From NCBI GenBank assembly GCA_963750865.1, contig CAVVSQ010000002.1, positions 14,231 through 78,230 on the forward strand: a DNA stretch of 64,000 bases, in the 5' to 3' direction. The notes beneath the pieces are model-generated. The model worked only from the letters and a program-made list of their open reading frames with translations. It did not search any database and was not told the DNA's origin. Position numbers and translations under genes: made by a program. Origin of the DNA: an uncultured Planctomycetota bacterium. Lineage in GTDB: Bacteria; Planctomycetota; Planctomycetia; Gemmatales; Gemmataceae. Positions 4,695-59,589 of this stretch are shown in pieces; the first letter of the stretch is position 1; every line of letters begins with the position of its first letter.

Positions 4695-5065
4695 CTACGA
4701 AATCCCGCCATATTCTCCCGGAAGAAATAGGGCAGTAATTCGCTTCCGTTGGGCCAGGGCGGCAGTGCCCCGAGCTTCCGCACCGAGACTCGCTAAACCC
4801 ATTCCTGCGGCTGATTATAGCATGCGGAGGGCCGCCGTTGCCAGGGCGAGGGGCGTTTTCTTCTAATGCCTTCCGATTTCTTGCGCTGAGCCAGGCGAGA
4901 TCGTGTCGGGACTGGTTTACGGCCAAAAGAGGCGAGAACAAGGACCCCCTTAAAACAGGGTGTGGTCGTCGTGGCATCAAGGAATGAGCCGCACGAAACC
5001 ATCGTTTTCCCTTGTAACAGCGTCATTCGCGCACGAGCAGTTCCTGACCACGCATCGGCCCCTGG
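4695..5065 (+). repeat. repeat family R1, copy b (5' and middle parts)
   Basis: Aligns with 7076-7375 and 8143-8190/8271-8411. Forward 18-mer GAAATAGGGCAGTAATTC at 4724..4741. Similarity stops at 5065, where the transposase remnant begins. Confidence 0.8.
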
Positions 5066-5093
5066 GTACTGTCTTGCTTTGGTAGCTTTCACC

Positions 5094-5283
5094 ATGGTCC
5101 CCGTTGAGAACGTCCAGGTCGATGAAATCTGGGGGTTTGTTGGCTGCAAAGGAAAGACCGCCGTTCGCAAGGGGGATGGACCGGAAGTAGGAGACACCTG
5201 GTGCTTCACTGGTATTTCACGCGACACCAAGATAATTCTGGCCTGGCATCTTGGCAAGCTAACCGCTACCGATGCCCTGGCGG
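5094..5283 (+). pseudogene. IS1-like DDE transposase remnant (about 60 aa)
   Basis: VQVDEIWGFVGCKGK...GDTWCFTGISRDTKIILAWHLGK matches the (V/L)QxDE(I/M)W(S/A)FVGxK...W....D..TK block of IS1-type transposases. N- and C-terminal parts are absent. Confidence 0.55.
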
Positions 5284-5404
5284 AACCATGGTCATTGCAA
5301 AAACTGCTTGCGGAAGCCGCGCCAATCTAGATAATGATGAAGGAAAGGATTTGCCCCAATTGCTCTGGAAAAAAACAATGCCACTCAATTAAGGCGTTAG
5401 TTGC

Positions 5405-5716
5405 ATGGCTTCTCAAGAAGACCCCTTGCGCCAGATTGCGGAATCGCTTGCCAACCTGGAGCGCCTGTACGCTGACAGCCTGCGCCGTCAGGAAGAGCAG
5501 ATCAAGCGATCAGAAGATCGCCAAAAGGTATTTGATGAGAGTCAAAAGATATTTGATGAGAGGCAAAAAAGGTGGGCCAAAATAGATGAAGAATTGGAAA
5601 AACATGGCTTATTTACTCAAAATCCTCGGCTGCACCTGAGTCGGATTGGTCATTTTTTGATCGTTGCTTCCCTATTAATTCTCGCCTTTACCGTTTTTAT
5701 TATGGCACGCCGTTGA
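5405..5716 (+). CDS. hypothetical coiled-coil, C-terminally membrane-anchored protein
   Basis: Intact 103-aa ORF with a charged heptad-like N-terminal part, an internal duplication (KVFDESQKIFDERQK) and a C-terminal TM (FLIVASLLILAFTVFIMA). AT-richer than its surroundings. Confidence 0.5.
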   Translation: MASQEDPLRQIAESLANLERLYADSLRRQEEQIKRSEDRQKVFDESQKIFDERQKRWAKIDEELEKHGLFTQNPRLHLSRIGHFLIVASLLILAFTVFIMARR

Positions 5717-5783
5717 ACGGAATCACACCATCCGGAATTCTCTTGGTGACGATTTTTGTTGCAACGCAATCGTAGGACAGTAC

Positions 5784-6101
5784 CAGCCCCTGAAAAGCAT
5801 ACCCCAGGCGATTGCATCCTCATAGCCACTCTTGGCCGCTGACCCTTCTTCCCATCTCAACCACCATGGCATTCGCATCGAGGCGACCGTTCCGGCCCAG
5901 CGTCCACGTGCCTTTCCATGGAGTAAAACACGGAATTGTTCGTCACGGGATGCTGTCGTTGCTTGGAATTGTGGACGCGGCGTTGGCATTGATAACGGCA
6001 TGGCTTCCTCCCTTCGAGGCGGTCATTCGCCGCTAAACCAGGGGAGGAATTACTGGCCTATTTCAGGCCTTGATTTGTTCCATTATTTAGGCAAGGATGA
6101 C
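5784..6101 (+). repeat. repeat family R1, copy c (middle and 3' parts)
   Basis: Aligns with 8180-8270 and 7385-7643. Reverse 18-mer GAATTACTGGCCTATTTC at 6047..6064. Confidence 0.8.
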
Positions 6102-6133
6102 AGCTTTTGGACCGGACACACGACCCCCGACGG

Positions 6134-6976
6134 TTACTGACTTTGGTCGGTAATGCGCATGACGATACGAAAGCCTAAGCTATTCCCTCTTAGATGAGGC
6201 TCGATCGAATCGCGGCTTGCCGAACGACATTCTTTGTCACTATCACCATACGATCCTCCGCGAACCACACGCTTTTCTCCCCTTTTAGGACCTTTTGGGT
6301 CTTTTCGGGGGCTAGTTTTATAATAATCCTTACTATACCAATCTTCACACCACTCGGATACGTTTCCATGCATGTCGTACAATGACCACTTGTTCGCCGC
6401 GAACCTACCCACATTACAAGGTTTATTATCACTACCGCCGTTAGGGAAAAAATTTGCTTGACGTAAGGACAGGGTCTGACCAAATGAAAATGCCGTCTTT
6501 GTTCCGGCGCGGCACGCATACTCCCATTCGGCCTCGGTCGGTAGAGTATATGCTTTTTTGTCCTCCCTGGATAACTTTGCACAGAAACGTTTTGCCTCAT
6601 GCCAACTAACTCTTTCGACGGGCAAATTGATTCCTTTGAAGTGACTGGGGTTTTCTCCCGTCACCTTCTCATACTCCCCTTGAGTTACTTCAAACTTGCC
6701 GATGTAGTAAGGATGAGTTATTTCAACTTCATGCTGGATCTCCTCCCTGAGCCGAAGAAACTCCATTTCAGGCGATCCCATAGTGAATTTGCCTGCTTCG
6801 ATCAAAACCAGCTTTAACCCAATGGAGGTCTCAATTTCTTTAGGTAGGAAAGGTTGTTTATTCGATGTTCCCGCGCAAGGTGCCAAACCAATAAAAGGAC
6901 ACGCAAACGCCACTCCTATTGCCAGAATCAGCCAATGCGAATGCCGATTAGTCTCATAGATCCTGGAAGGCAGCAT
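6134..6976 (-). CDS. formylglycine-generating enzyme family (SUMF1/FGE-sulfatase domain) protein
   Basis: GKFTMGSP...HEVEITHPYYIGKFEVTQGEY...VSWHEAKRFC...LPTEAEWEYACRAGT...NVGRF..NKW.LYDMHGNVSEWCEDWY...RGGSY...LGFRIV. N-terminal signal/TM. Visibly lower GC than neighbours. Confidence 0.9.
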   Translation of the reverse strand: MLPSRIYETNRHSHWLILAIGVAFACPFIGLAPCAGTSNKQPFLPKEIETSIGLKLVLIEAGKFTMGSPEMEFLRLREEIQHEVEITHPYYIGKFEVTQGEYEKVTGENPSHFKGINLPVERVSWHEAKRFCAKLSREDKKAYTLPTEAEWEYACRAGTKTAFSFGQTLSLRQANFFPNGGSDNKPCNVGRFAANKWSLYDMHGNVSEWCEDWYSKDYYKTSPRKDPKGPKRGEKRVVRGGSYGDSDKECRSASRDSIEPHLRGNSLGFRIVMRITDQSQ

Positions 6977-7075
6977 ACTAATCCTCTATTAATAGTGATT
7001 AACGATATTATTCTTCAGTTGGCATTCAATTTTTATAGTTATTTTACCTTTTTCCAGGTTTGCATCTTGTGGCCT

Positions 7076-7643
7076 CTACGAAATCCCGGCACATTTTGCC
7101 GGACGAAATAGGGCAGTAATTCGCTGCCGACGAGCCAGAGCGGCAGCACCCCGAGCGTCCGCCGCCTCACCGAGACCCGCAAAACGCATTCCTGGAGCTG
7201 ATTATAGCCTGCCGAGGACTGCCGCTGCTACGCGCACGGGGCATTTTCTTCCAATGGCTTCCGATTTCTCGGCGCTGAGCGAGGCGAGAGCGTATCCGAA
7301 CTGGTTTACGGCCAAAGGAGGCGAGAACGAGGACCCCTTCAAGACAGGGTGTGGTCGCCGTAGCCTCAAGGAATGAGCCACCTCTTGGCTGCCGCCAATT
7401 CTCCCATCTCGACCACCACGGCACTCGCATCGAGACGACCGTTCCGGCCCAGCGACCGCGTGCCTTCCCCTGGAAAAAAACAAGGAATTGTTCGCCACGG
7501 GATGCTGTCGTTGCTCGGATTTGTGAACGCGGCGTTGGCATTGATAACGTTTCCCTTCAACGCGGCCATTCGCAACTATTCCAGGGGAGGAATTACGCCC
7601 TATTTCAGGCCTTGATTTGGGCCATCATTTCGGCGAGGATGAC
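7076..7643 (+). repeat. repeat family R1, copy d (both ends present, middle part deleted)
   Basis: Forward 18-mer GAAATAGGGCAGTAATTC at 7105..7122 and its near reverse complement GAATTACGCCCTATTTC at 7590..7606. Fills the whole divergent gap between genes 6134..6976(-) and 7707..8135(+). Confidence 0.85.
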
Positions 7644-7706
7644 GACAAGTCGATGGGCTGGTCTTGCGGGAGCTGCCAGCGGGCAAAGAAGGAAGGGCAA
7701 TCGGCC

Positions 7707-8135
7707 ATGTCTAGACGTAAGGGAAGCCTGCTGACCGTCGTACTATTGGTCGCGGTGCTACCACCGGGACTGATTGGAGTCCTGTGGATAAGAACGAGCG
7801 CGGCGGAGCCAGGTGTCACAGAGGCCAATTTCCGCTCCATCGATGTGGGTATGGCGGAGAAGCAATGCCGTCAGATTCTTGGAATGCCGAAATCCGCAAC
7901 ACGGGAGCGAGCCCGAGTGGGGATACCAGCGTATCTGGTCGTTCAGTGGGAAGAACTTAAACTAGGACTAACAATCGACATGGTGTTCGATTCAAGCGGG
8001 CGTGCAGAAGGCGGACTTCTTCTCAAGAGGACTTCTCAGAATGGGCAAACCGTTATTGCTTCTCTAAACATGGGGTTGGTGACAGATAGTTCCGAAACTC
8101 TGTTCGCTCGCCTCCGTCGCTGGCTTTGCCGGTGA
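7707..8135 (+). CDS. hypothetical membrane-anchored protein
   Basis: ATG at 7707 followed by RRKGSLLTVVLLVAVLPPGLIGVLWI (signal anchor). No domain recognised. The upstream part of ORF 7617.. lies in repeat R1. Confidence 0.5.
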   Translation: MSRRKGSLLTVVLLVAVLPPGLIGVLWIRTSAAEPGVTEANFRSIDVGMAEKQCRQILGMPKSATRERARVGIPAYLVVQWEELKLGLTIDMVFDSSGRAEGGLLLKRTSQNGQTVIASLNMGLVTDSSETLFARLRRWLCR

Positions 8136-8142
8136 CTAAAAA

Positions 8143-8411
8143 AGCATCATTCCCGCACGAACACTTCCTGACCACGCATCGGCCCCCTGGAAAGCATGCC
8201 CCAGGCGATTCAATCCCCAGAGCCACTCTTGGCCGCCGCCAATTCTTCCCATCTCAACCACTATGGCACTCGCAGTAATTCGCTTCCGACGGGCCAGGGC
8301 GGTACGCCCCGAGCGTCCGCCTCTTCTAGACCCGCTAAACCCATTCCTGGAACTGATTCTAGCCCGCCGTGGGCACCCGTTGCCAGGGCGAGGAGCATTT
8401 TCTTCCAGCGC
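8143..8411 (+). repeat. repeat family R1, copy e (chimeric: middle part, start of 3' part, then 5' part)
   Basis: 8143-8270 aligns with 5025-5065 plus 5784-5870. At ...GGCACTCGCA/GTAATTCGC (about 8270) it switches to the segment seen at 4733-4860 and 7114-7245. Confidence 0.75.
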
Positions 8412-8620
8412 CTGCCGGTTTTCTTCTTCACGTCCGCGTGCTTGTTTGTCCTCAACGGAGGACGCCAAGCACCATCAGCGCCGTGCCGCTTGAAGCAAGG
8501 CAGGACCACGCCCACTTTTACCCTCACGTAATTGCGGCCCCCGCTCCGTCCTTCATCGCCAGAGACGATTTGCAGCCTGCATCACGGAAGATGGCGGCGG
8601 GTCATTGCAATGCGGGAATC

Positions 8621-9327: not shown

Positions 9328-9344
9328 GTAAGTCGTACTAGAAA
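9328..9344 (+). promoter_or_regulatory. conserved island motif copy 1 (GTAAGTCGTACTAGAAA)
   Basis: Ends 41 nt before the ardC-1 ATG. Same core at 10386, 15633 and 17282. Confidence 0.55.
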
Positions 9345-9384
9345 CGGCCAGACAAGTGACAAAACGAATCAGCCGGAGACAAAA

Positions 9385-10284
9385 ATGGCACGTCAAAATG
9401 ATATTCGCACTCAAGTGAATGGCAAAATCATCGAGGCCCTCGCCAAAGGACTCACCCCGTGGAAAAAGCCGTGGGTCGCCAGCAAGAATGCGGGAAATCC
9501 CGCAAACGCTGTGAGTGGACGCTCCTATCGAGGTATTAACCCTCTTCTCCTCGAACTTGCCGCCATGGACAAGGGTTTCAAATCGAAATGGTGGGGTACG
9601 TATCGCCAATGGCAAGGCTTGGGTGCGCAGGTCAAAGGTGGCGAGCGTGGCACCCGAATCGTATTTTGGTCCCCCGTCAAGCGGACAAGTAAAAACGAGG
9701 TCGGCGAAGAAACGCAGACGACGTTCCCACTTATGCGTGAATACACGGTGTTCAATGCCGACCAATGCCAAGGAACTGAGCGGTTTGCGGTCGAGCCTGC
9801 CAGCGGCACCACCGCCGTGGACTTCGAGCCTGCCGAAAACGTCATTGGAACCACAGGAGCCGATATCAGGCACCTCGCTGGTGACAAAGCAGCCTACCAC
9901 CGTCCGCCGCACGATTTCATTGTTCTGCCAACGAAAAGCCAATTTAACCAAGCACCCTTTGGCTTGGCTGGCTATTACGCGACGGCGTTCCATGAGCTAA
10001 TGCACTGGAGCGAACATCGCGTTAGCTGGAGCGGTAGCTACGCTCTTGGTGAACTTCGTGCCGAAATTGGGGCAGCCTACCTCGCCGCCGAAATCGGCAT
10101 CCCCATCGCGGACAATCTCGAAAACCACGCGAAATACCTCGACTCGTGGCTCAAGACGATGCAAGCCGATGCCAAAGTAATCTTCCAAATCACTTCGGCA
10201 GCAAGCAAAGGTGCAGATTTCATCCTCTCCTTCAGCCGCGAACCTCAGCCGAAACCACAAGAAGAAGAACTGGTGACCGCTTGA
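9385..10284 (+). CDS. ardC: ArdC-like antirestriction protein (ssDNA-binding N-domain plus zincin-like HExxH C-domain), copy 1
   Basis: KIIEALAKGLTPWKKPW...SGRSYRGINPLLL...KWWGTYRQWQGLGAQVKGGERGTRIVFW and FHELMHWSEHR...ELRAEIGAAYL. ATG at 9385. Confidence 0.9.
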   Translation: MARQNDIRTQVNGKIIEALAKGLTPWKKPWVASKNAGNPANAVSGRSYRGINPLLLELAAMDKGFKSKWWGTYRQWQGLGAQVKGGERGTRIVFWSPVKRTSKNEVGEETQTTFPLMREYTVFNADQCQGTERFAVEPASGTTAVDFEPAENVIGTTGADIRHLAGDKAAYHRPPHDFIVLPTKSQFNQAPFGLAGYYATAFHELMHWSEHRVSWSGSYALGELRAEIGAAYLAAEIGIPIADNLENHAKYLDSWLKTMQADAKVIFQITSAASKGADFILSFSREPQPKPQEEELVTA

Positions 10285-10385
10285 CCGGAGCCAGGCAAAA
10301 CAATCTTCAACGGCGGAGCTTGACAACGGCGGTTCCAGACGATCATGTGATCGCCGAGAACACAAGAACGGAATCGGCCAACAGT

Positions 10386-10400
10386 GTAAGTCGTACTAGA
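10386..10400 (+). promoter_or_regulatory. conserved island motif copy 2 (GTAAGTCGTACTAGA)
   Basis: Ends 22 nt before the ardC-2 ATG. Confidence 0.5.
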
Positions 10401-10421
10401 TTCTCTCGGAGGCAAACAAGA

Positions 10422-11285
10422 ATGTGCGACATCCATGAAAAGGTAACGAATCAAATCCTGGACGCTCTGAAAAACCAAGGTCCCATACCTTGGCGGAACT
10501 CTTGGTTGGCTCATGAAAACGCAGGCTACCCGATGAACGTGCTGTCCAACTTTCCTTATCGGGGTGTCAATGTCATCCTCCTGCAAATGGAGGCCAACGA
10601 GCGCGGCTACTTGTCCAAATGGTGGGCGACGCCTTCGGCTTGGAAGTTCAGGGGTTGCCCGGTCAAGGCGAACCAGGCGGGAACAGAAGTTTGTTTGCAG
10701 GACAAAAAAGGACTGCGCTGCGAGGCGCTGTTTAACGCGGAACAATGCGAAGGGGCGGACAGATACTTGGTCACAGACTTCGGTGTTGGCTTAACCAATT
10801 GGGATGCGGCTGATGAGGTTATCGCGGCCACTCGGGCGGACATCAGGCATGTGCCTGGCACCCAAGCCGCCTATTTTCGGTTGCCGAAGGATTACATCAT
10901 CGTGCCCTTAAAAGAACAATTTGTGGAAGGGGGATATGGCGTCATTGCGTATTACGGAACAATATTTCACGAGTTGGTTCATTGGTCGGAGCATCGCCTC
11001 GGATGGTTTGCCAATCCCGCTTTGCCCCTGGCTCCCCGGTACACCATCGGGGAATTGCGAGCAGAACTGGGGGCCTGCTTCATGGCTGGACAGTTGAGGG
11101 TTCCTCCGCCAAACAGCTTCGCGCATTTTTTACAGTTTGTTGGCAAGTGGGAGAAAGTGATGAGCGCCGACCACACGGCGATTTTCGACATTGCCGCCGC
11201 CGCCAGTGATGCCGTGGATTTCATATTGTCGTTCAGCCAACGTTCGCAACCCGCGACCAAGAAAAAGGGCCTGGTGACGGCATGA
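10422..11285 (+). CDS. ardC: ArdC-like antirestriction protein, copy 2 (divergent paralogue)
   Basis: QILDALKNQGPIPWRNSW...NFPYRGVNVILL...KWWATPSAWKFRGCPVKANQAGTEV and FHELVHWSEHRLGW...ELRAELGACFM. ATG at 10422. Confidence 0.9.
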   Translation: MCDIHEKVTNQILDALKNQGPIPWRNSWLAHENAGYPMNVLSNFPYRGVNVILLQMEANERGYLSKWWATPSAWKFRGCPVKANQAGTEVCLQDKKGLRCEALFNAEQCEGADRYLVTDFGVGLTNWDAADEVIAATRADIRHVPGTQAAYFRLPKDYIIVPLKEQFVEGGYGVIAYYGTIFHELVHWSEHRLGWFANPALPLAPRYTIGELRAELGACFMAGQLRVPPPNSFAHFLQFVGKWEKVMSADHTAIFDIAAAASDAVDFILSFSQRSQPATKKKGLVTA

Positions 11286-11521
11286 TTCGTTACTACCAAG
11301 AACGCGACACCGGCGATTACTTGTGCATCGACACGGCGACGAACCGCTACTACCTCGACATTTTTGGCAAGGACCATTTTGAGGGTCGGGCAACGGCCAT
11401 TGCCGGACTGGTCGGGTCGGTCTGCACGACAGGCATCTGCAGGGAGTATCTTCAGAAAAAATGCAAGCGAGTGGCTCGGCAAAATGTGCCAATCAAATGG
11501 CAAACGGCCATCGGCTATTAA
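11282..11521 (+). CDS. hypothetical protein
   Basis: 79-aa ORF whose ATG overlaps the ardC-2 stop (ATGA), suggesting translational coupling. Confidence 0.5.
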   Translation: MIRYYQERDTGDYLCIDTATNRYYLDIFGKDHFEGRATAIAGLVGSVCTTGICREYLQKKCKRVARQNVPIKWQTAIGY

Positions 11522-11531
11522 GGACAAAATC

Positions 11532-12482
11532 ATGTCGGAAAACCAGGAAATCAATGACGTGACGCCCACCGCCCTGGGTCACATCGTTGGTCAGCGGTCG
11601 GTATTGGACCAGGTGCGGGTCGCCATTGAGGCGGCGTTTGCGGATGGCAAAAAGTTTGACCACGCCTTGCTCGTGGGTCCACCCGGCCTCGGGAAAACTG
11701 CAAGTCGCTGCTATAATCGCCAGCGAAATGGCGACGGAGTTCCACGAGGTGCTTGGGCAAAGCATCAAGAATCCAGGCGACTTGAACGCCGTGCTGCTGG
11801 CGGCAAAGGATAAAGACATCGTCCATTTTGACGAAGCCCATGAACTAAGAAAGCCGTTTCAAACAAGCTTGTATCGGGCGGTCGAAGGCCGAAAGCTCTT
11901 CATCGAAGGCAGGTCCAGCAAAGTACAAAACATCCCCTTGGCGGATTTTTCGGTTTTGCTCAGCACCACCGATGAATATTGCCTGCTGCAACCCCTTCGG
12001 ACCGCATGAAATTGTTGCTGCGGTTTGAATTCTACTCCGAGGAAGAACTGGCAATTCTATTGCAGCAACGGACCCATGGTTTGACCTGGATCGTGGAAGA
12101 AGTGGTCTTTTCGCTGATTGCCCAGCGTTCCCGAGGCACACCCAGGTTGGCCCTTCGTCTCTTCAATCGGCTCGCCGCGTCTGTCGAGCGGAAGGTGAAA
12201 GAGCCATCGGCCTAAATCACCTAGAACGAGCTTGCCTCTTGGAACAAATCGACTGCCTGGGCTTGGGACATATCGAGCAGGAATACCTCCGCATTTTGGC
12301 AGGCGGTGACAGCCGGTTGAACGTGATAGCCAGTCGGTTGGGATTACCGGCACGCACCGTGAGCCAGGTTTCCGAGCCGTTTCTTATCGGGTCGGCTTGG
12401 TGGTCAAGGACGATAGGGGCGGCGGCAATTAACCCAATTTGGCAGGGAGCATCTGTCCAAAAGTCGCCCAGAAGATGTCTAA
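11532..12482 (+). pseudogene. RuvB-like AAA+ ATPase paralogue, at least 5 frameshifts, IS630 at its 3' end
   Basis: Pieces in three frames: GPPGLGKT / VAAIIASEMATEFHE...IVHFDEAHEL / PLRDRMKLLLRFEFYSEEEL...SRGTPRLALRLF / RRVCRAEGERAIGLNHLE...LGLGHIEQEYLRIL...EPFLI / LVVKDDRG / RRQLTQFGREHL. Order and motifs follow RuvB. Confidence 0.8.
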
Positions 12483-13680
12483 ATAGCCGTGCGCGATTAT
12501 GCGACACGTCGCCACGTGGGTCTGTACCGAGCGTACCGACGTGCGGCGCGGGTGTTGCGCTGGTGTAACTCATAGCGGACCGCACGCATTAGAGTGACCA
12601 TGTTGGGACATTGATGGTTGCGCGTTACCTTCGCATGTAGATCGCGCCATCTCAGTTCGATCCGGTTGTCATTGGGACAATAGGGCGGCAAAAAGTGCAG
12701 GACAATGCGTCCACCCCATTGTTGCAGCGCACAGTTCGCTATCTTGCTGGTATGAATACGATAGTTATCCACGATCAGATGAATGACACGCGCTTCGGGA
12801 TAACGATCGACCAGCTTGGCCAAGAGGGCCACGAATAAAACGCTGTTTTTTTGCTTGCCCTCCACCCAGTACAACAAGCCCGTCCGCGCATCCAACGCCC
12901 CGGCCAAGTAACGTTTCTCGTTTTGCCCCGGCGTCACCACCTGCTTTTGCAAGCCCGGCAACATCCAGTCCCAGCCGATCTTGGGATTCAAATGGATGTC
13001 CACCTCGTCGCCATACAAGGCGACTTCGTTGGCCGGCAAAGTGTCCAACAGCCGGCGAATGGTGTTCAAACGCCGTGTTTTCGCGGCCGCCGCCCACGGG
13101 CAACGCACCACCGGTCGCGGGCGTCCACGCCGGGCACCCAGACGACGCAAGGCTCGGCTCATCGTGCCGACGTGGACGCGCACGCCGGTCTGGCGCACCA
13201 TCGTTTTGACCAACAACTCGCGGGTCCAGGTTGGACGCCGCCAACCGTAGGAGTGTGGCTGCTTCAGGACAGCCCAATACAAGGCATCCAGATAGGCTTC
13301 GTCCAATTTCAAGCAGCCATTGTCCTCACGGCGGTCAAACAAACCAAGCTCGCCCTGCTCGCGGAAACGGGCCGCAACGCGATAGATCGTCGAGCGATGA
13401 ACCCGCAGCACCGAGCCATATGGCGGACCGAATGACCATTGAGAAGGCCGATGACAATCAGATAATGGGTGCGCAGCAGAGGAACGCGACAACGCCGAAA
13501 ATGGCGGTTCAGCTTGTCCTTGAAGGCCCCGCGAACTTTGGGGATAATACCAGTATTGTGCATGGGAGCTCCCTCCTTGACGGACAGCGATAAACTGTAG
13601 GAGGCGAGTTCCCATGTTTTGCTTTCTACCTTGAATTTAAGCGGCCGCAGCTGTGTCGCACAATCGCGCACGGCTATTTA
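12480..13680 (-). mobile_element. IS630-family insertion sequence
   Basis: 28-bp terminal inverted repeats TAAATAGCCGTGCGCGATTATGCGACAC (12480..12507) and reverse complement at 13653..13680 (1 mismatch). TA at both junctions, as expected for the IS630/Tc1 target duplication. Confidence 0.9.
12497..13563 (-). pseudogene. IS630-family transposase, -1 frame break near 13414
   Basis: N-terminal HTH frame from ATG 13563 (MHNTGIIP...LLNGHSVRHMA) continues as SVLRVHRSTIYRVAARFREQGE...DDE_3 core (YGDEVDIHLNPKIG...IVDNYRIHTS...LPPYCPNDNRIE) in ORF 12497..13615. No slippery heptamer at the junction. Confidence 0.85.
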
Positions 13681-13703
13681 GGTTTTGTTCAAAAGGTGTT
13701 CAA

Positions 13704-14171
13704 ATGTTTGCCGAAACAAAGGCCGTCGTGACAGTGTCCGAGATGGCCCGCATGTGCGGTTTGAGTCGCGCGAGATTTTACCAGCTTCAGCACATCGGCG
13801 TGTTCCCACCGCCACTATACGATGTGTCCACTCGTCGTCCAATTTATGTCGAAGAACTGCAAAAAGTGTGTCTGGAAGTACGGCGAAGGAACTGCGGCAT
13901 CAACGGCAAGCCGGTTCTTTTTTACGCTCGCCACCTTGGGTCACCAGTGGCCAAAGGTCCAAAAACCAAAAAGCCCCCGAAAGACAATCGACACGCCGAC
14001 CTCATCGGGGCACTGCACTCCCTCGGCCTGACGACCGCCACTGCTTCCAAGGTCGAGATGGCGGTCAAGTATTTGTTTCCGCAAGGGACAGGCGAGACGG
14101 ATAAAGCCGAGGTCATCCGAGCTGTGTTCGTCCATCTGAAGCGTCAGAATCCGGGTGATAACGTGGGGTGA
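13704..14171 (+). CDS. excisionase/AlpA-like HTH DNA-binding protein
   Basis: From ATG 13704: VTVSEMARMCGLSRARFYQLQHIGVFPPP is a MerR/excisionase-type HTH. Lies directly upstream of the recombinase. The ORF-track start 13653 lies inside the IS630 inverted repeat. Confidence 0.55.
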   Translation: MFAETKAVVTVSEMARMCGLSRARFYQLQHIGVFPPPLYDVSTRRPIYVEELQKVCLEVRRRNCGINGKPVLFYARHLGSPVAKGPKTKKPPKDNRHADLIGALHSLGLTTATASKVEMAVKYLFPQGTGETDKAEVIRAVFVHLKRQNPGDNVG

Positions 14172-14240
14172 TAAGTGCCATTATCACCCGAGTTAAGCAC
14201 CCGAAGTGTCAACTTTCTGTCGAATTGCTGGAGATAAGCC

Positions 14241-15152
14241 ATGAAGAATTGGGGCGATAATGTTTTTGACCATATCGCGGTCGGGCCGGAGGACGCCCCA
14301 CTGTTTGGTCGCTTCCTGGCTGCCCATGACTTTTCGGGGAACAGTCGGCGGGCCTTCATCCAGGACGTGCGGAAGTTCGCCAGGTGGTTCGCCTCGGCAA
14401 ACAAGGAACCGTTTCGGGTCGAGCCGTGTGACCATGAGGCACGTGACCGATTTCCGCGACCACCTTCGTCGGCAGGAAGGTCAAGCGGTGGCAACAGTCA
14501 ACCGCTGTTTGGTAACTCTTCGGCGCTACTTTGGCTGGCTGGTTGAGCAAGGCCACATCGTCACAAATCCTGCGAAAGCCGTGAAGGAACTCCACCGAGT
14601 CCAGCTTGGCCGAAGGGTCTGGAGCGGAGCGTTGTCCGCCGTCTGCTGCGGGAAGTGGAGTTGCGCGAGGATGTTCGCGCGGGGGCAATCTTCTCCCTCT
14701 TCTTGTGGACCGGAGCAAGGGTTTCCGACGCCGAGAACATGGAGCTATCCGACGTAATGCTGACGGAACGAGGCGGCACGGTCATCTTCCGTTTTGGCAA
14801 AGGCAACAAACAACGTTCCGTCCCTTTGCCGCTTCCCGCACGACGTGCCTTGCAAACCTACTTGGAAACACGCCCACTCGTCGAAAGCCAAAACGTTTTC
14901 ATCGGCGAACGCGGCCCTTTGAGCGACCGGGGCATTCGGGCTTTGTGCGACAAATATTCCGCGATCATTGGCGTCAGCCTGCACCCGCATTTGTTCCGGC
15001 ACACGATGGCCCATCAGTTCCTTGCAGATAACAGTAACGACCTGGTGGGCCTGGCTCAAATCCTCGGCCACGAGAACTTGAACACCACGGCAAGATACAC
15101 GAAGCGAACCAGCGAGCAATTGTCAGAAGCCGCCGACCGCCTCACTTATTGA
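14241..15152 (+). pseudogene. tyrosine recombinase (XerC/D-like integrase), two frameshifts
   Basis: N-terminal SAM-like domain in frames 14241.. and 14260.. (RAFIQDVRKFARWF / VTDFRDHLRRQEGQAVATVNRCLVTLRRYFGWLV). Catalytic domain in 14655..15152 (TGARVSD...GKGNKQR...HLFRHTMA...[12 protein letters not shown]). Breaks near 14425 and 14615. Confidence 0.85.
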
Positions 15153-15251
15153 CTGTGGCACTGGCTAAAACCAATGTGAAACGCATGGAATTTGCACTTT
15201 CAGACAGAATCGAAGTTCATGCCGCCAGGCTGACCAGTTGACTCCATAGCT

Positions 15252-15509
15252 TTAAGGTCCTACAGGTGGTTCCGCTTCTCGTTTGTCTCGTTTGAGTCGC
15301 ATTGCCTTGACGTTGAAATACCACCCTGCCAATAAAACCAGCAACGCAGTCGGAGTGCCGATTAGATAACGTAGTGTCGGCGAAATCTCCGGGCCAGGTG
15401 TAAGGCTAAACTGTACTGGATTGAGTAGCGGATAATACACAAACCCTAATGCGATAACCCCCGATAAAGCAAGAGTCGCCGCGAAGATCGAGTAAAATGA
15501 TGTTTTCAT
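15252..15509 (-). CDS. small two-TM membrane protein
   Basis: ATG 15509. Two hydrophobic helices and a basic C-terminus. Low GC. The only minus-strand ORF inside the island core. Confidence 0.45.
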   Translation of the reverse strand: MKTSFYSIFAATLALSGVIALGFVYYPLLNPVQFSLTPGPEISPTLRYLIGTPTALLVLLAGWYFNVKAMRLKRDKREAEPPVGP

Positions 15510-15632
15510 ATGTGCTACCAATGAGACAGTAGGAAGCTACGTCGGTCAGCATACCACCTCCTACGCGGCATATCAATAACGTACTCCGTCTGGGCCTTCT
15601 CACTGCGGCGGGCACTGGCATTCTCATCTGCC

Positions 15633-15649
15633 GTAAGCCGTACTAGAAA
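15633..15649 (+). promoter_or_regulatory. conserved island motif copy 3 (GTAAGCCGTACTAGAAA)
   Basis: Ends 44 nt before ATG 15693, at the head of the small-gene array. Confidence 0.5.
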
Positions 15650-15692
15650 TCGACATGGCAAAGTCAGTGGCCTTCAAACCTAGGAGACAACC

Positions 15693-15821
15693 ATGCCTGA
15701 GTTCGATTTCGACGGCTTTTTCGACGGAGCAGATGAGCTCGATGACGGGATGGATCAAGGCAGCGAGTACGAGGATGGCTTCAGCCTCTTCGACCCGGAC
15801 ATGCAAGATAACGCTGATTAA
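15693..15821 (+). CDS. 42-aa hyper-acidic peptide
   Basis: AGGAGA 6 nt upstream of ATG. MPEFDFDGFFDGADELDDGMDQGSEYEDGFSLFDPDMQDNAD. Below the ORF-track cut-off. The next gene starts 14 nt after its stop. Confidence 0.45.
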   Translation: MPEFDFDGFFDGADELDDGMDQGSEYEDGFSLFDPDMQDNAD

Positions 15822-15834
15822 GGGGGGCAAGCTG

Positions 15835-16029
15835 ATGGACATCGTGGACAAAGTCATTGCTTATGAGGATGGCACTTTGGACGAACAGGCGACGATTGCC
15901 TTTTTCCAAGAACTCATCGACTCCGGTTGGGTTTGGCAGTTGCAAGGTCGCTATGGTCGAACCGCCGCGAGCCTTATTGAGGCGGGCCTATGCACGCGGA
16001 GACCGGTTAAACGAGATCGTGAAGGTTGA
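15835..16029 (+). CDS. small conserved phage/plasmid-type protein
   Basis: MDIVDKVIAYEDGTLDEQATIAFFQELIDSGWVWQLQGRYGRTAASLIEAGLC. I recall this pattern from mobile-element small proteins, with no family name. Confidence 0.5.
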   Translation: MDIVDKVIAYEDGTLDEQATIAFFQELIDSGWVWQLQGRYGRTAASLIEAGLCTRRPVKRDREG

Positions 16030-16032
16030 ACC

Positions 16033-16383
16033 ATGGACGCTTTTCTCAACGCCTACATCGTCGCCGCCCTCTGGTCGTCAAACGACGAAGCCACACCAGA
16101 GGGCGGCGAACCGCTTGACGCAAATTACGGTCCCAACGACCTCCATGCCGAGACTCTTGAAAAAATGAAAGCCGATTGCGACAGGTTCCAGGCCGAGAAT
16201 GCCACGGACATCGCAGGAAGCGAGGAAAGAGCTGGCCACGACTTTTGGCTAACCAGAAATCATCACGGCTGCGGCTTTTGGGATGGCGACTGGCCCGAAG
16301 CGGGGGAACGCCTCACTCAAGCGTGCAGAAACTTCCCTGAGGTCAATCTCTACGTGGGGGACGACGGCTGGATTTACTGCTGA
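16033..16383 (+). CDS. conserved ICE/plasmid accessory protein
   Basis: AALWSS...AGHDFWLTRNHHGCGFWDGDW pattern recalled from ICE/plasmid accessory regions. Starts 4 nt after the upstream stop. Confidence 0.6.
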   Translation: MDAFLNAYIVAALWSSNDEATPEGGEPLDANYGPNDLHAETLEKMKADCDRFQAENATDIAGSEERAGHDFWLTRNHHGCGFWDGDWPEAGERLTQACRNFPEVNLYVGDDGWIYC

Positions 16384-16408
16384 TTCCCGAACAGGGAAAG
16401 ACAAAACA

Positions 16409-16627
16409 ATGTACGCACTTGTCGAAACTCGTGGCGGTATCGTGTCCGGTGTCACCTTACACGATACCCATATCGACGCGATTAATCGAGCCTGCCACAT
16501 CGCCGAGCAAAACGGTCTATGTGAAACCGACGAGGCCAAGCAAGAAGTTCTCGACGCCTTGGGAAGCCATGACTCCTACCGATGCGGCCATTACCGCGTC
16601 ACTGTCGTTGAAGCGATCAAAACTTAA
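16409..16627 (+). CDS. small hypothetical protein
   Basis: 72 aa from ATG 16409, co-directional and closely packed. Confidence 0.5.
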   Translation: MYALVETRGGIVSGVTLHDTHIDAINRACHIAEQNGLCETDEAKQEVLDALGSHDSYRCGHYRVTVVEAIKT

Positions 16628-16642
16628 TGGGGGGACTTCACC

Positions 16643-16912
16643 ATGGGCCTCACGGCAAAAGAATTAGCTCAAGCGGTCCGCGATGAACGCATGGAATTCG
16701 ATGATGCCCTGATGGAATTGCTCATGCAAAACCAGCCCGACCAGCCCGACCTGGGGTTCTTCATGATGCTTAAAGTCGCAATCGGCTACGCGAAATTAGA
16801 CCGCTGGGACAAGCAACTCGCAATATCCGATGACGACAGCTTGAGCGTGCGTGACATCATCGAGAGATTTGACCTGGGGCCGTTTCTTGAGATCGACGCA
16901 AATGAGGATTGA
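16643..16912 (+). CDS. small acidic hypothetical protein
   Basis: Intact 89-aa ORF, 15 nt after the previous stop. Confidence 0.5.
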   Translation: MGLTAKELAQAVRDERMEFDDALMELLMQNQPDQPDLGFFMMLKVAIGYAKLDRWDKQLAISDDDSLSVRDIIERFDLGPFLEIDANED

Positions 16913-17045
16913 GAATTTCCGGGCATGGCAGGCCACAGCTTCGAGGACACATTGGAGCTAGAACGGCGTAAAGAACATTTGAATCTAAGGCGCACTCAAA
17001 GCGATGTCCAGGCGACCGACGAGAAAGAAACAAAGGAACGCTGCG

Positions 17046-17252
17046 ATGCTTGAACCGCATGATTTTCAGGTAAGCAACGAAGGCACCATTTGGCTGTTCA
17101 CGCCACTAAACGAACGTGCCAACACCTTTGCTCAGACCGAACTTGGACTGGAAGCATGGCAATGGGTCGGAGATGGTTTTGCCATCGAACATCGCATTGC
17201 TCGCCAACTTGTTCAGTCCTTAAAGGAAGAAGGCTTTGAGTTTCAAAAGTAA
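17046..17252 (+). CDS. small hypothetical protein
   Basis: ORF 17004..17252 trimmed to ATG 17046 (MLEPHDFQVSNEGTIWLF...). Confidence 0.45.
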   Translation: MLEPHDFQVSNEGTIWLFTPLNERANTFAQTELGLEAWQWVGDGFAIEHRIARQLVQSLKEEGFEFQK

Positions 17253-17281
17253 GCCGTGGATCGTCCACAACAACGGTTTGC

Positions 17282-17298
17282 GTAAGTCGTACTAGAAA
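17282..17298 (+). promoter_or_regulatory. conserved island motif copy 4 (GTAAGTCGTACTAGAAA)
   Basis: Ends 39 nt before ATG 17337. The flank AACGGCA resembles copy 1 (ACGGCCA). Confidence 0.55.
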
Positions 17299-17336
17299 AC
17301 GGCAGAGTGGCAAACAAACACGAAAAAGGAGCCATC

Positions 17337-17582
17337 ATGCCTGACCCAACCGAAGCCATCCGTCGCCAACGTATCGTCGAAATCAATATTGAGCCTGGCA
17401 GTCGTCAATCCCTGGAGTCCCAACACGGCCAGGTGTGGGACACCGACGAACTTGGCGAGGCTTTTGAGGTGATTGGCTTCATGGCACCGTTTGTGGTTGT
17501 CTCCCGGAAAGCCGACGGCGAAAAAGGCAGCCTGGAATTTCAACATGAGCCCCGGTTTTATTTCAATTTTCAACCGCATTGA
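17337..17582 (+). CDS. small hypothetical protein
   Basis: AAGGAG 7 nt upstream of ATG 17337. 81 aa. Confidence 0.55.
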   Translation: MPDPTEAIRRQRIVEINIEPGSRQSLESQHGQVWDTDELGEAFEVIGFMAPFVVVSRKADGEKGSLEFQHEPRFYFNFQPH

Positions 17583-19191: not shown

Positions 19192-19749
19192 ATGTCAAAT
19201 TACTTGGGAAACTTCTTTCGTGACCGTCGAGACGAATTTGGCCTCACGCTCGGGGAGCTGGCCCGAACGCTGGGCTACCGCAATGTCACAAGGGGCGTTC
19301 GACGCATCTTCCACCTTGAGCGCGAAGGGACCATCAAGGAAGACCTTCTGATAAAGCTCGCCGAGGCACTGGGAATCGAATTGCCCACCGTGGAACGGCT
19401 GATTGACGAGGACCATAAGGAACATCTTCGTCAATGGGAACTGTGGGTGAACGAGTCGCAGCCTATGTTTCTGGTAGTGAAGCTAATGCCAGCGGTGTAC
19501 TCAAAAAAAGCCCTGCCTCCCGAAGTCACGACACCTGAGCAAGCTGAAGCCTGGGCTTGCGAGTTTGCTCGGCAGCATCGGCTGCGGGTCTGCCTGGTTC
19601 TCTCCAGGCGGCTGTCAGTGTGGATTGATGCCGACGGTAACGTCGAGACAAGAACCGAAGCCACTCCTGGCGAGCCGAATACGCCCTGGATGAAACTCCC
19701 GGGTAACCCGCGAAAGTTCCTGTTCGGGCTCCAAGATAGCCATGAATGA
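19192..19749 (+). CDS. HTH (XRE-like) DNA-binding protein with unknown C-terminal domain
   Basis: FGLTLGELARTLGYRNVTRGVRRIFHLEREGTI...LIKLAEALGI is an HTH_3-like N-terminus. 12-nt inverted repeat 19094..19105 / 19159..19170 upstream. Confidence 0.65.
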   Translation: MSNYLGNFFRDRRDEFGLTLGELARTLGYRNVTRGVRRIFHLEREGTIKEDLLIKLAEALGIELPTVERLIDEDHKEHLRQWELWVNESQPMFLVVKLMPAVYSKKALPPEVTTPEQAEAWACEFARQHRLRVCLVLSRRLSVWIDADGNVETRTEATPGEPNTPWMKLPGNPRKFLFGLQDSHE

Positions 19750-20389
19750 CCCAGACTTCAAAATTCGTTTCCATCACATGACCATCCGTGACCTGGACGA
19801 GCAAAAGTTCGTTGTAGCGAAGCTCCGGCGTGTAAGCTCGTCTCCCGTCCACCTTGGAACCGTGTGCAAACCAACGGAGAGCGCTGTGGGGCGGCTGGCC
19901 GACATTTTTCGTCTGGGAATAAACAGTCGCAACTATGCCGACCTTTGCAGGATTGAGCGGCTTCTACGGGAGCGGTTTCATACGGACCCAGAATCCGAGT
20001 GGCGTGCATGCAACGAAGTCATTTGCCGTTCCTTGGGAGTCGAGCGGCTGGATGCCATCGCTCCCAAAAAGCCAATGTGGTCAAGTCGGTGTTCTGGTTT
20101 TTCCGTGACTTTTCACACGGCAAAAATGCTCGACCTGCCATATGTCGTGGCCAGCGTGAACGGCATTTTTGGGTCCCCGGCACCGCTCTTCTTGACCTGG
20201 CCCAGCGAAAAGGAAAGTGCCATTGAGAGGCTTCGAGATGTTTTCAGGGTTGGCTTGCGGGGGCGGGCTTTTCGGGATTTTTTGGAGGTTGGTCGGGAGT
20301 GCGGGAAAGGCGAGGACGAGATTGTGGCGGAGTGGAAGGCGTGCGAGAGGGCGGCGTGGTGGGCTTTGGAGCGGGTCGTGCGACATTGA
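19742..20389 (+). CDS. hypothetical protein with internal duplication
   Basis: ATG overlaps the end of the HTH gene by 8 nt. Two similar halves: ESAVGRLADIFRLGINSRNYADL...EWRACNEV and ESAIERLRDVFRVGLRGRAFRDF...EWKACERA. Confidence 0.55.
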   Translation: MNDPDFKIRFHHMTIRDLDEQKFVVAKLRRVSSSPVHLGTVCKPTESAVGRLADIFRLGINSRNYADLCRIERLLRERFHTDPESEWRACNEVICRSLGVERLDAIAPKKPMWSSRCSGFSVTFHTAKMLDLPYVVASVNGIFGSPAPLFLTWPSEKESAIERLRDVFRVGLRGRAFRDFLEVGRECGKGEDEIVAEWKACERAAWWALERVVRH

Positions 20390-21614: not shown

Positions 21615-21810
21615 CTCAGCACCGGGCTAGGTAGATTAGGCTTTTGGCCATTCTACCTCTCCTTCCTTCGATTGCAAGCCGGTGAGGACGCGAACGGCGA
21701 ATGCCTGCAAAGTATCATGGGGTTGGTGGAAGTTGATGCCAGAACCCCAGGCGAACGAGCGAACGGCATTCTTGTGATGTGTGCTATTCGCCGCTCGCCC
21801 GTTCGCTGTG

Positions 21811-55925: not shown

Positions 55926-58900
55926 ATGAGTTGGTTGCGGGAAGCAAACGCCGAGCCTATTCCCGGTTATCGCTTGATCGAACCGCTCGGCAGCGGCGGC
56001 TTCGGCGAAGTCTGGAAATGCGAGGCTCCCGGCGGGCTCTTCAAGGCCATCAAGTTCGTCTATGGCAATCTCAATTCGCTCGATGTCGATTGCGTGCGCG
56101 CCGAGCAAGAGCGCAAGGCGCTCGAACGCATTAAAGCGGTCAACCATCCGTTTGTCTGCTCGCTCGAGCAAGTCCAAGACGTTGGCGGTGAGCTCGTCAT
56201 CGTCATGGAGTTGGCCGAACGCACGCTCCATGACCTGTTCACGGAGTGCCAAAGCACCGGCCTGATCGGCATCCCACGCTCCAATCTTTTGAGCTATCTC
56301 GCCGATGCCGCCGAAGCGCTCGACTTCATGAACAACGAGCCGCATAAGCTGCAACATCTCGACATAAAGCCGAAGAACCTGTTCATCATCGGCAATCACG
56401 TCAAGGTGGCGGACTTCGGCCTGGTCAAGAGTCTCGAACGGCATTCGTCCTCCGGTCTCATGGGAGGAGTGACGCCGCTTTATTCCGCGCCCGAAACATA
56501 CACCGGCAAAATCTCGCAATTCAGCGATCAATATAGCCTTGCCATCGTCTATCAAGAGCTTCTGACCGGCCATCGCCCGTTCGCCGGCAAGAATGTCCGG
56601 CAACTCGCCCAGCAACACATCAACGAAGAGCCGGATCTGCGGTCGCTTCCGGAGGCGGAGCGGCCGATCGTCGCGCGGGCCTTGGCGAAAGATCCGACTA
56701 AACGCTTCCCCAGTTGCTCGGCGTTCATAACCACCCTCTACAAGGCTCGCCCGGTGGGCCGTGTGGCCACGCTTCCCACGACCGCCCCCGCCAAGGAATT
56801 GGCATTCGCGGGGGTCGGCGCCGCCGGTCGCAAGGTCGAGAGCTTGCGCGATTTTCAACTGGAGGAAATCGGCGACCATCCGTCCGAGGCAGTCGATTTC
56901 GGCGCGCCGCCGCTGCCGCCGCCCGACCCGGACGAAGAATCCAATATCCAGTCGGAAATGGGCGTGACCATCGCCCAGCCCGACACCGGCGCCCTGCGGC
57001 CCACGATGATCATCGGCGTCGGCGCCTTCGGTCGCAAAGCGCTGTTGGAGCTGCGTTGCCGTTTTCTCGACCGCTTCGGCGACTTGAGCAAGTTGCCGCT
57101 GCTGCGCTTTCTGTGCATCGACGCCGACCCTGAAGTTCTCAACACCGCCATTCGCGGAGCGCCTGAAGTTGCCTTGACCCGCAACGAGGTTTATCCGCTG
57201 CCGTTGCAGCCGGTGGTCAACTATCGCCGCCGCAGCTTGGAAGAGCTCAGCGAATGGTTGCCTCGCGAAAAGCTCTATGCCATGCCGCGTTCGCTGCAAA
57301 CGCAAGGCTCGCGGGCGCTGGGCCGGCTGGCCTATTCGGACAACCAGCAACGCCTGGTGGCGCGCCTGCGGCGCGAAATCCAAGAGATCACCAACCCGGA
57401 CAACATCTATCAGTCCGTGACGCAAACCGGCCTGGCTCTGCGCGACAGCACCCCGCGCATTTACGTCATCGCCGCGGCCGGAGGCGGCGGCAGCGGCATG
57501 TTGCCCGACCTGGGATATGCCATTCGCCGCATGCTCGCCCAATTGCGGCATCCCGACAGCAAAGTCAGCGCCTTTCTTTTGTGCGGCGCACCGCAAGACC
57601 CCGCCACGCCAAAACAGGAACAGGCCAACATCTACGCCACGCTCACGGAACTGAATCATTTTTGCGATGAAAACGTCCGCTTCGCCGCTCAATATGGCAT
57701 GGACGGCCCCCGGATTATTGATGAAGGCGCTCCCTATACATCGGTCTACATGTTGCCCCAGGCCCACCGCACGCCCGAAGCCATGGACGCCAGCGTCGCG
57801 CATCTGGGTAACTATCTCTTTCATGAATTGACCACGCCGCTGGGGCTACGCCTGGACAATTTGCGCCATGAAGATGACCTTGGGACAACCGGCGCTCAAG
57901 CCCGCTCGCTCGCCGTGCCCCTGCGCAGCTTTGGCACGTTTGCGGTTTGGTTTCCGCGCGGCCTGCTCATTCGCCTGGCGTCCCGGCAAGCGTGTCAGCG
58001 ACTCATCACCGGCTGGCTCAGCACCGCCCGCGAGGAAATCAGCGCCGAGAGCCAGCAGCAAATCCAGGAACTCATCGCCAAGGTATTGCAGCATGAGCTT
58101 CTCAAGCCCAACGTTTTGGGCAAGCGCATCGAAGCCCTGACGCAGGCCGGCTCGCCCACGGATGTCGGCAACACGCCCGGCGAAGTGCTCGCCGGCATCT
58201 TGGCCAAGCTGGAAGAGCAAATCGTTCAACCCGTCGTCCAAGAGGACGCGGGCAACTGGGCCAAGCAGGCGCTCAATCGCGTGCGCGACTGGGTCGGCTC
58301 CGGCGAGGCGACTCAAGAAGTCAACGAATGGCGCAAGACGCGCCTGACGCGCGCCTTGTGCGTGGCGGCCCAAAAAGTCGTCGACGACTGGGATCGCGAA
58401 ATATCCCAGGGACTCGTCGCCCTCATGGACAATCCCGGCGCCCGCGTCGCCGCCGCCGAGATAGCCCTCGAAAACCTCGAAGCCTTTTTCCGCAAGGAAA
58501 GCGAAACACGCAAGGATGCCATCGCCCAGCAAGCCGGCAAGACCGCCGCGGCCTGGCAAAACCTCGAGCTGGCCGTCCAGGAATGCGTCGCCGGCGGCGG
58601 CGGTTTTCGCCTATTCGGCGGTCGCTCGCGCGGCCGGCAACTGCGTGCCTTCATGGATCAAGTCGCTCATTTCGCTCACGAGCGCTTGGCCGAGGAAATC
58701 CTCGGCGCCGTCCGCCACGCCCTGGCCCTGTTGGCCGGCAAACTAGCCGAGCGCCACCCGCGACATGGGCTTCGTCCGCCAACGTCTCCGGCATTTGCAA
58801 GAAAATCTCGATGCCGCGCCAACCGACGCGGACGAGGAGGTCGCCAACACCCGCGGCGGCGGCGACTTCACGATGAGCCACACTCCCATCCCCTCGACCG

Positions 58901-59589
58901 AATCCTTTTGGGAAGCGATCCGCCAATCGCCGACGGCACGCGTGGTTTTGCCCGGCGGTGAAACGGACCTCGAACGCGCCGCCCTCAAGTTTTTGCAAGG
59001 GCTTAAGCCCGAGCAGTGGCTTATTCTGGACAAAGAGTTGCACGAGCGCATCTTGGTGGCCCGCGGCGGCCTTCACGGCGCTTGCATGACGAGCGGCGAT
59101 TTGACCCGCCACCTGGCAACGCCTCTGCTCGTCGAAGCGGGTAGCATCCTGAGCCAACATTTGCCGATAATGGACGTGGCGCAGATTCTCTGCAACGAAG
59201 CCGGCGCCCGTGAGGGCTCGGCCAATACGGTCTCCGAACTGAGCACCACCGATTTGGAGGCCCAGGTGCGCAACTATCTCGCCCGCGCCACGCCTCTTTT
59301 TGCCAGTCAACGGGAAACTTTTCAGCATGCCTTTTTGCTGGTACCCGCCAGCCAGGCCGGCAGAGCGCTCGAAAGCGCCATCCACCAAGTCGTTCCGGAT
59401 ATCCGTCACGTCCGCGTGGCCGGCCAATCCGACTTGATGCTGTGCCGCGAGCAAGGCTCGCTCACCGCCCAAGATCTCCACGCCATCCTCAAACCGTGTC
59501 ACACCGCCTACGAGCAACTCCACGGCGCGCCCAACACGTCGCCGCACGCCCGCTTCGATATCCAAGACTGGCTGCCCCTCGACCCCTGA
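55926..59589 (+). pseudogene. Ser/Thr protein kinase fused to a tubulin-like (FtsZ/tubulin superfamily) domain and a long helical C-terminal region; one frameshift near 58755
   Basis: Kinase: GSGGFGEVWK...AIK...HLDIKPKNLF...VADFGL...YSAPE. Tubulin-like: PTMIIGVGAFGRKALLELR...LRFLCIDAD and IYVIAAAGGGGSGMLPDLGY. The ORF 55926..58961 tail becomes Arg-rich nonsense where ORF 58765..59589 (MGFVRQRLRHLQENL...) takes over. Confidence 0.85.

Follow-up and report, generated by a model that had tools for sequence, protein, structure and literature searches.

A short co-oriented motif before the genes of an ardC-led planctomycete island is one of a set of lineage-specific motifs and a candidate compact promoter

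How are the genes of a small integrated island transcribed when no sigma-70-like promoter is visible ahead of its + strand units? This question is raised by the 64,000-nucleotide (nt) stretch of DNA analysed here (hereafter the window, that is, the whole stretch at its full length), which covers positions 14,231 to 78,230 of contig CAVVSQ010000002.1 (assembly GCA_963750865.1) of an uncultured Planctomycetota bacterium; a planctomycete-like host is also indicated by the neighbouring DUF1559 gene and by the Ser/Thr kinase and PP2C genes. The window contains an integrated anti-restriction island of about 11 kb, led by ardC, in which a short asymmetric motif recurs. A first-pass annotation had placed four + strand copies of this motif before ardC-1, ardC-2, a small-gene array and the gene at 17337, and our exact search with GTAAGYCGTACTAGA confirmed them, giving four matches in the window (aa, amino acids):

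9328-9342, + strand: motif copy 1 (GTAAGTCGTACTAGA), 42 nt 5' of ardC-1; conserved CA at 9349-9350
10386-10400, + strand: motif copy 2, 21 nt 5' of ardC-2, at the head of the ardC-2 operon
15633-15647, + strand: motif copy 3 (C at position 6), 45 nt 5' of the gene for an acidic 42-aa peptide; CA at 15654-15655
17282-17296, + strand: motif copy 4, 40 nt 5' of the gene at 17337-17582; CA at 17304-17305

The chance expectation for GTAAGYCGTACTAGA in the window, estimated from dinucleotide shuffles, is 0.01. No further match with up to two mismatches was found on either strand of the window. On a position weight matrix derived from 27 related sites, of which two are one-mismatch matches outside islands, the four copies reach 26.8-36.6 bits, and 7.0 bits is the best score elsewhere in the window. 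This agrees with the first-pass annotation, in which the core was not seen elsewhere in the 64 kb. The motif is not a product of chance and, within the window, it is confined to the island. The ATG codons that follow the copies (9385, 10422, 15693 and 17337) each have a GGAG-type ribosome-binding site of their own. The flanks of the four copies are unrelated, a short A-rich extension excepted; the extension that had been described as shared by three copies is real (AAACGGC / AAATCGAC). Copy 3 comes after a minus-strand gene (15252-15521), and it follows from the layout of genes and copies that the four copies head four transcription units covering every + strand gene of the island. A palindrome, CGATCATGTGATCG, is located at about 10343-10356, some 30 nt 5' of motif copy 2, and is kept in the related island L030; an operator is one possible role, and marking where the ardC-1 transcript ends is another.

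Homologous islands, which the first-pass annotation had suggested searching, keep the same core. Islands with an ArdC 61-86% identical to ArdC-1 (86% in L030; 61-67% in L032, L034-36, L039, L114 and L116) retain the sequence (G/A/C)TAAG(C/T)CGTACT 5' of their genes, with two to seven copies in each of them where the contig is long enough. The flanking sequence of these relatives, which form lineage A, has diverged around the conserved core, and none of the copies among nine lineage-A loci lies on the minus strand. A search of genome contigs with ArdC-1 alone gave a single weak and irrelevant match, and a tblastn search of plasmids with the same protein returned only relatives below 40% identity.

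The more distant ArdC islands were taken from a metagenome scan. These islands are without the window motif and have at equivalent positions a repeated + strand motif of their own, 11-16 nt long, of which we identified at least nine versions:

TTAATTGTACCAAG: L037, L043
TTAACTGTACCAAA: L357
YGACACCGACT: L045, L050
CGGACACCAACC: L066
TTAATAGTGGGTACGG: L064
YGACACCGCCGGR: L078, L079, L083, L088, L092 (lineage F)
TTAAAATGTACATG: L105
CTGAATTGTGC: L060, L063
WGTGTACGGT: L086, L103
AGTCCCGGTGTATARC: L082, L084, L090, L110

Most of the ardC upstream regions, in about 80 loci, are of the nGTAC/TGTAY type or the GACACC type. Across nine lineages, all 129 motif copies share the strand of the genes, and the opposite strand has none; an ATG-initiated open reading frame (ORF) of at least 40 aa begins within 70 nt of 113 of these 129 copies (88%), as compared with 31-44% for random positions. 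With k-mer motif discovery, about a dozen loci at a greater distance did not give a clear motif. The main result of our study, which lay outside the view of the first-pass annotation, is that the window motif is one of a set of interchangeable, lineage-specific motifs. As a separate observation, L081 (about 9900-9960) and also L070 and L096 carry 5' of ardC a perfect palindrome, AGTTACAnAATTGTAACT, and not an asymmetric repeat; in that lineage it may be the operator of a dimeric repressor.

The explanation that we favour, and to which we give about an even chance, is that the motif is a compact core promoter or gene-start signal without a -35 element, read by a lineage-specific factor. Promoter function, a start of transcription and a dedicated reader are what we infer from the orientation, position and conservation of the motif and from its replacement between lineages. 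Each copy would be the core promoter of one transcription unit of the island. The 15-mer would span about -22 to -8, with GTAC in place of the start of the -10 hexamer and the -35 element absent, and initiation would take place at a purine, usually the A of the conserved CA, 8 nt past the 15-mer (A9350 in the case of copy 1). The factor would be a sigma-like subunit or an activator docking beside the -10 region, and its specificity must co-evolve with the island, because every position of the block is conserved within a lineage and the block is replaced wholesale between lineages.

Several features of the sites are consistent with initiation at the motif. The CA is kept in 21 of the 27 lineage-A sites, 7-8 nt past the 15-mer, and a G-C precedes the motif; when the sites are aligned on GTAC, the CA appears 13-15 nt after the G in lineages A, B and E and also in L086/L103 and L357. 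The conserved A is in some cases that of a start ATG lacking a ribosome-binding site: ArdC in L086/L103, the c6 gene in L037, L043 and L357, and a gene for a 163-aa protein in L032, L035 and L116. In one lineage GTAC-NN is replaced by TATA(A/G)C, a near-consensus -10 hexamer. No conserved block occupies the -35 place in any lineage, and a consensus scan found no sigma-70-like pair on the + strand at the four window sites; the same scan gave sigma-70-like pairs for the minus-strand genes of the same intergenic regions, with a total of matches that was not above chance. In agreement with the earlier description, the motif is not a palindrome and has no -35/-10 pair. The motif returns after most minus-strand interruptions (window copies 1 and 3; positions 3259, 8746 and 11413 in L032; 3875 and 7710 in L357), and this counts for a promoter because a new + strand promoter is required there; the + strand gene at 5598 in L357, which comes after a minus-strand ORF of 56 aa, has no motif. 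Among the roles that had been proposed, an element-specific promoter is the best supported, on account of the co-orientation, the position, the fixed-distance CA, the return after minus-strand genes and the lineage-specific replacement.

Elements that bring their own transcription specificity are represented by the promoters of the T7, T3 and SP6 RNA polymerases, the T4 late promoters (gp55) and the orthogonal sigma-promoter pairs of the extracytoplasmic function (ECF) type. The motif resembles these sets in being a private, contiguous sequence before many genes, free of the host -35/-10 code and with related versions in related elements. It differs from them in several respects. The polymerase of T7-type promoters is encoded by the element and their block reaches the start, whereas here the block ends about 8 nt before the predicted start; ECF promoters have a -35 (AAC-type) and a -10 (CGT-type) element 16-17 nt apart, whereas here GTAAG and CGTAC are contiguous, 1 nt apart; and sigma-70 promoters have a -35 element 16-18 nt upstream of TAnnnT, whereas the hexamer of the motif, TAC-RGR, is without the final T.

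If the motif is a promoter, which protein reads it? There is no sigma or polymerase domain among the proteins of the window island, and no ORF of the island exceeds 347 aa; the source of the reader may be the host or a helper element. Scans of viral contigs with three versions of the motif gave single chance matches only and no contig with several copies, and thus no hint that a helper phage makes use of these promoters.

Two protein families deserve attention. The first is that of a 185-aa helix-turn-helix (HTH) protein of ordinary Xre type encoded in the window at 19192-19749, for which, as the first-pass annotation had proposed, the motif may be a binding site. The family has 73 proteins. 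Its members appear at the right end of several GTAC-type islands with differing flanks, with a recognition helix that varies between lineages; L358 and L359 are examples of its occurrence away from such islands. For the window protein, the AlphaFold model (pLDDT, the predicted local distance difference test score, of 92) has Foldseek matches to Xre HTH domains only, the C-terminal domain being without a match, and the protein has no match in phage records. The second family, c20, counts over 265 members, and its gene stands in divergent orientation to ardC in ten related loci, including L084 (1133-2029), L060 (3081-3911), L090, L075/L077, L065, L067, L076 and L360 (10001-10783). Profile searches of Pfam, NCBIfam and PDB gave no match for c20. 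Its AlphaFold model has two helical domains and a disordered linker between them, and sigma factors (SigH, SigD, SigI, sigma-E and phage RpoE-like proteins) head the Foldseek matches in both PDB and BFVD, all of them weak (E-values 0.02-3). A very distant relative was also seen 5' of ardC in L089 (8509-9639).

Other candidates were tried and rejected. The excisionase-like HTH protein c8 has an HTH segment that is, by eye, nearly identical in the window and in L048, whose motifs differ. The RuvB-like ATPase and the integrase are as similar between lineages A and B as within lineage A, yet the motifs of the two lineages differ. The minus-strand genes located 5' of ardC in other loci, considered as regulators, proved to be host BREX-like or unrelated genes.

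The following points weigh against a promoter with a dedicated reader. The start of transcription is predicted from sequence alone. Neither the window island nor lineages A and B show a detectable gene for a sigma factor, an RNA polymerase or a c20-like protein, in the case of c20 even after one manual iteration of the profile search, and the sigma-like fold matches of c20 are statistically weak, as their E-values indicate. The TA of GTAC is 1-2 nt farther from the predicted start than the canonical -12/-11 position, and the last base of the hexamer is not T. Where a gene starts 7 nt past the 15-mer, ribosomes could bind at the purine-rich end of the motif (RGRA), in which case the motif would be inside the mRNA. 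Finally, the hairpin of lineage F that is described below begins within the motif and finishes at the ribosome-binding site. A wider generalization is possible and we offer it tentatively, as clearly less probable than the promoter role itself: the ardC-led islands of planctomycete-like hosts would use at least nine distinct promoter codes without a -35 element, of the super-types nGTAC/TGTAY and GACACC, each read by a fast-evolving specificity factor (a divergent sigma-like one in some lineages), so that an island would form a private regulon independent of the host promoter rules.

Among the alternatives, the one that survives best is that the motif is the asymmetric operator of an island-encoded repressor that silences the whole island, either from over real promoters or by blocking elongation. 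We consider it rather unlikely and, at the same time, a serious rival that is compatible with the promoter explanation if the site overlaps the core promoter. Its model is the stoperator of cluster A mycobacteriophages (13 bp, L5 gp71 type), which is intergenic, oriented with transcription and present in variants that co-evolve with the element (PMC9283540, PMC6550527). The island sites have the published properties of stoperators, since they are asymmetric, 11-16 bp long, present in many copies within short intergenic gaps, strictly oriented with transcription and variable between lineages (PMC9283540); the co-orientation of all 129 copies and the 88% of them that lie 5' of an ORF agree with this likeness of the site. 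The Xre-type HTH gene, moreover, is at the end of the copy-4 operon and has the recurrent right-end position and the variable recognition helix noted above. The protein side is different: stoperators are bound by a monomeric two-domain repressor (N-terminal HTH, C-terminal stoperator domain) that blocks both initiation and elongation, whereas no such protein was found here and the model of the island HTH protein matches the Xre HTH alone and not a two-domain cluster A repressor. This HTH family is also found outside islands of this kind, and the arrays of lineage F, which consist only of ArdC and small genes of leading-region type, are without a regulator gene. A CA at a fixed distance across lineages with differing motifs is unexpected for a pure operator; together with the leaderless starts it points, in contrast to stoperators, to initiation at the site. 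Nor is an alternative promoter visible for the + strand units. A regulator shared by ardC and its neighbours does have a precedent in ArdK of R388, which acts as a repressor of PardC and of four further maintenance-region promoters and so co-regulates them (PMC3937220). The likeness, ardC and maintenance (leading-region) operons under one regulator of the element, is one of function and context only, and ArdK differs in being a repressor that acts on ordinary promoters.

It is improbable, in our estimate, that the motif acts in RNA, be it as an element of the 5' untranslated region, as a processing site that sets the 5' ends of mRNAs or as a translation signal. The last of these would resemble the start-associated sequences (SAS) of cluster K mycobacteriophages, a 13-bp asymmetric repeat found in a single orientation 5' of many start codons, sometimes holding the upstream stop codon and of unknown function (PMC3203893). 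The motif likewise always stands between a stop and a start codon, at times providing the stop codon of the upstream gene (4747 and 12185 in L032), and its purine-rich 3' end is usable as a ribosome-binding site by genes that start 7 nt later. The SAS, however, lie 3-7 bp from the start codon and contain the ribosome-binding (Shine-Dalgarno) core, whereas the distance from motif to start is 7-47 nt across lineage A (21-45 in the window) and most genes have a separate GGAG site. The RNA folds of the four window leaders were not better than those of shuffled sequences (z-scores -0.5 to -1.45). Rfam gave no match at the gathering score in the window and nothing relevant at E<=1 in the island, and no reverse-complement copies of the motif turned up in the islands when an antisense or small-RNA partner was looked for. 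Besides, a promoter that is not seen would still be required for the copy that opens each unit and for those that follow minus-strand genes.

Lineage F differs in structure. Directly after every motif of this lineage, a GC-rich hairpin of 10-14 bp extends from CCGGR to the ribosome-binding site (for example, L088 1615-1664), with an ACCAAC-type loop, some compensatory changes and a leader of near-constant length (37-43 nt), and pairing takes place between the motif's 3' half and the ribosome-binding region. The hairpin fits a 5'-terminal stem-loop of the mRNA if transcription begins right after the motif.

The lineage-F hairpins bear as well on a role of the motif in incoming single-stranded DNA, as an Frpo-like promoter or a priming site of the transferred leading region, which we regard as very improbable. 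The Frpo and ssi promoters of leading regions serve anti-restriction genes in one orientation (PMC11541004), and ArdC together with small families of leading-region type, all in one orientation, matches such conjugative regions (PMC11541004); in lineage F the array adjoins plasmid-like replication genes and has its hairpin beside each motif. Frpo, however, is a long hairpin that mimics the -35/-10 duplex, and no long hairpin rebuilding these elements exists at the window sites, where the template-strand DNA folds gave z-scores of +0.8, +1.4, +1.4 and -1.0 against shuffles. Integration of the window island, which has an integrase module and no transfer genes in view, also speaks against this role. 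Because the RNA and template-strand DNA folds are no better than those of shuffles and the Rfam search is empty, RNA-structure and Frpo-like roles are unsupported in the lineage of the window, and the same applies to the processing or single-stranded-DNA-promoter-like signal that the first-pass annotation had listed beside an element-specific promoter.

The least probable alternative is a recombination site of the island's tyrosine recombinase that marks cassette boundaries as in an integron. In its favour, a tyrosine integrase adjoins the small-ORF arrays, and in some loci a copy flanks nearly every gene (L088). It is disfavoured since the motif has neither dyad symmetry nor the imperfect-palindrome hairpin by which attC marks each cassette boundary. 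In the window, moreover, there are only two copies to eleven array genes; synteny is kept between lineages, the arrays of lineage F carry the motif without an integrase, and the integrases of lineages A and B are as alike as those within A while the motifs differ. As regards known systems, the motif has the site features of stoperators, the corresponding protein was not found, and the features of sigma-70 and T7-type promoters, Frpo, SAS and attC are lacking, as is the spaced -35/-10 pair of ECF promoters.

If the private promoter code is real, the small anti-restriction islands of a poorly studied phylum coordinate all of their genes without host-type promoters, and they would offer short orthogonal promoter sequences for immediate use and a way to find their reader, for which a very divergent sigma-like family is one candidate. 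Should the motif prove to be a silencing site, the stoperator principle would spread from mycobacteriophages to the integrated islands of another phylum. In either case, a pattern search with the motif is a practical means of marking out the island and its transcription units in metagenomic contigs, the genes of which are mostly unannotated.

The genes of the window island are arranged as follows:

9385-10284, + strand: ardC-1, with an ArdcN and a zincin metallopeptidase domain
10422-11285, + strand: ardC-2, a paralogue with 39% identity to ardC-1 and the same two domains
11532-12479, + strand: RuvB-like AAA+ gene, in which at least four frame changes are needed and whose 3' end is cut by an insertion sequence (IS); probably a pseudogene
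12479-13681, minus strand: IS630-family insertion with 29-nt inverted repeats and a transposase ORF (12497-13615)
13704-14171, + strand: conserved excisionase-like HTH protein (family c8, about 155-172 aa), 5' of the integrase
14241-15152, + strand: tyrosine integrase with an internal out-of-frame stretch (stop at 14544); probably a pseudogene
15252-15521, minus strand: membrane-protein gene, the single minus-strand gene between the integrase and the small-gene array
15693-17252, + strand: small-gene array from copy 3, with the acidic 42-aa peptide, DUF7417 (15835-16029), a 116-aa ORF (16033-16383) and ORFs of 72, 89 and 82 aa
17337-20389, + strand: operon from copy 4, with ORFs of 81 aa (c12), 141 aa (c5) and 347 aa (c31), the Xre-type HTH gene (19192-19749; c36) and a 215-aa ORF (19742-20389)

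The domains of both ardC products justify the name that these genes had been given. The copy-2 operon runs from ardC-2 through a 79-aa ORF and the RuvB-like gene to the HTH and integrase genes. The IS630 element, whose terminal inverted repeats (12479-12507 and 13653-13681) match at 97%, is inserted at the 3' end of the RuvB-like gene and parts the HTH and integrase genes from motif copy 2. The recombination module (RuvB-like gene and integrase) looks decayed, or else the assembly has indel errors there. By contrast, both ardC genes are intact, and so are the small genes and the four motif copies.

Some minor observations concern the surroundings of the islands. An imperfect 30-nt direct repeat brackets the window island (8069-8098 and 21716-21745; 73% identical, the first 13 nt being the same), and its two copies could be remnants of attachment sites. 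To the left of the island, several dispersed repeats at about 4700-8500 (for example around 4800, 7200-7500 and 8200-8500) give rise to similar spurious ORF fragments on both strands, which suggests elements like miniature inverted-repeat transposable elements (MITE) or repetitive extragenic palindromic (REP) sequences. Other islands adjoin host defence genes, namely a PLD/MZB/helicase cluster in L116 (393-4693) and, upstream in L056 and L079, BrxA/BrxB-like genes that were recognised by eye; insertion beside such genes fits the anti-restriction content of the islands. Elsewhere in the window, positions 55926-58961 encode a 1011-aa protein in which a Ser/Thr kinase domain is fused to a tubulin-like (Tubulin_2) domain.

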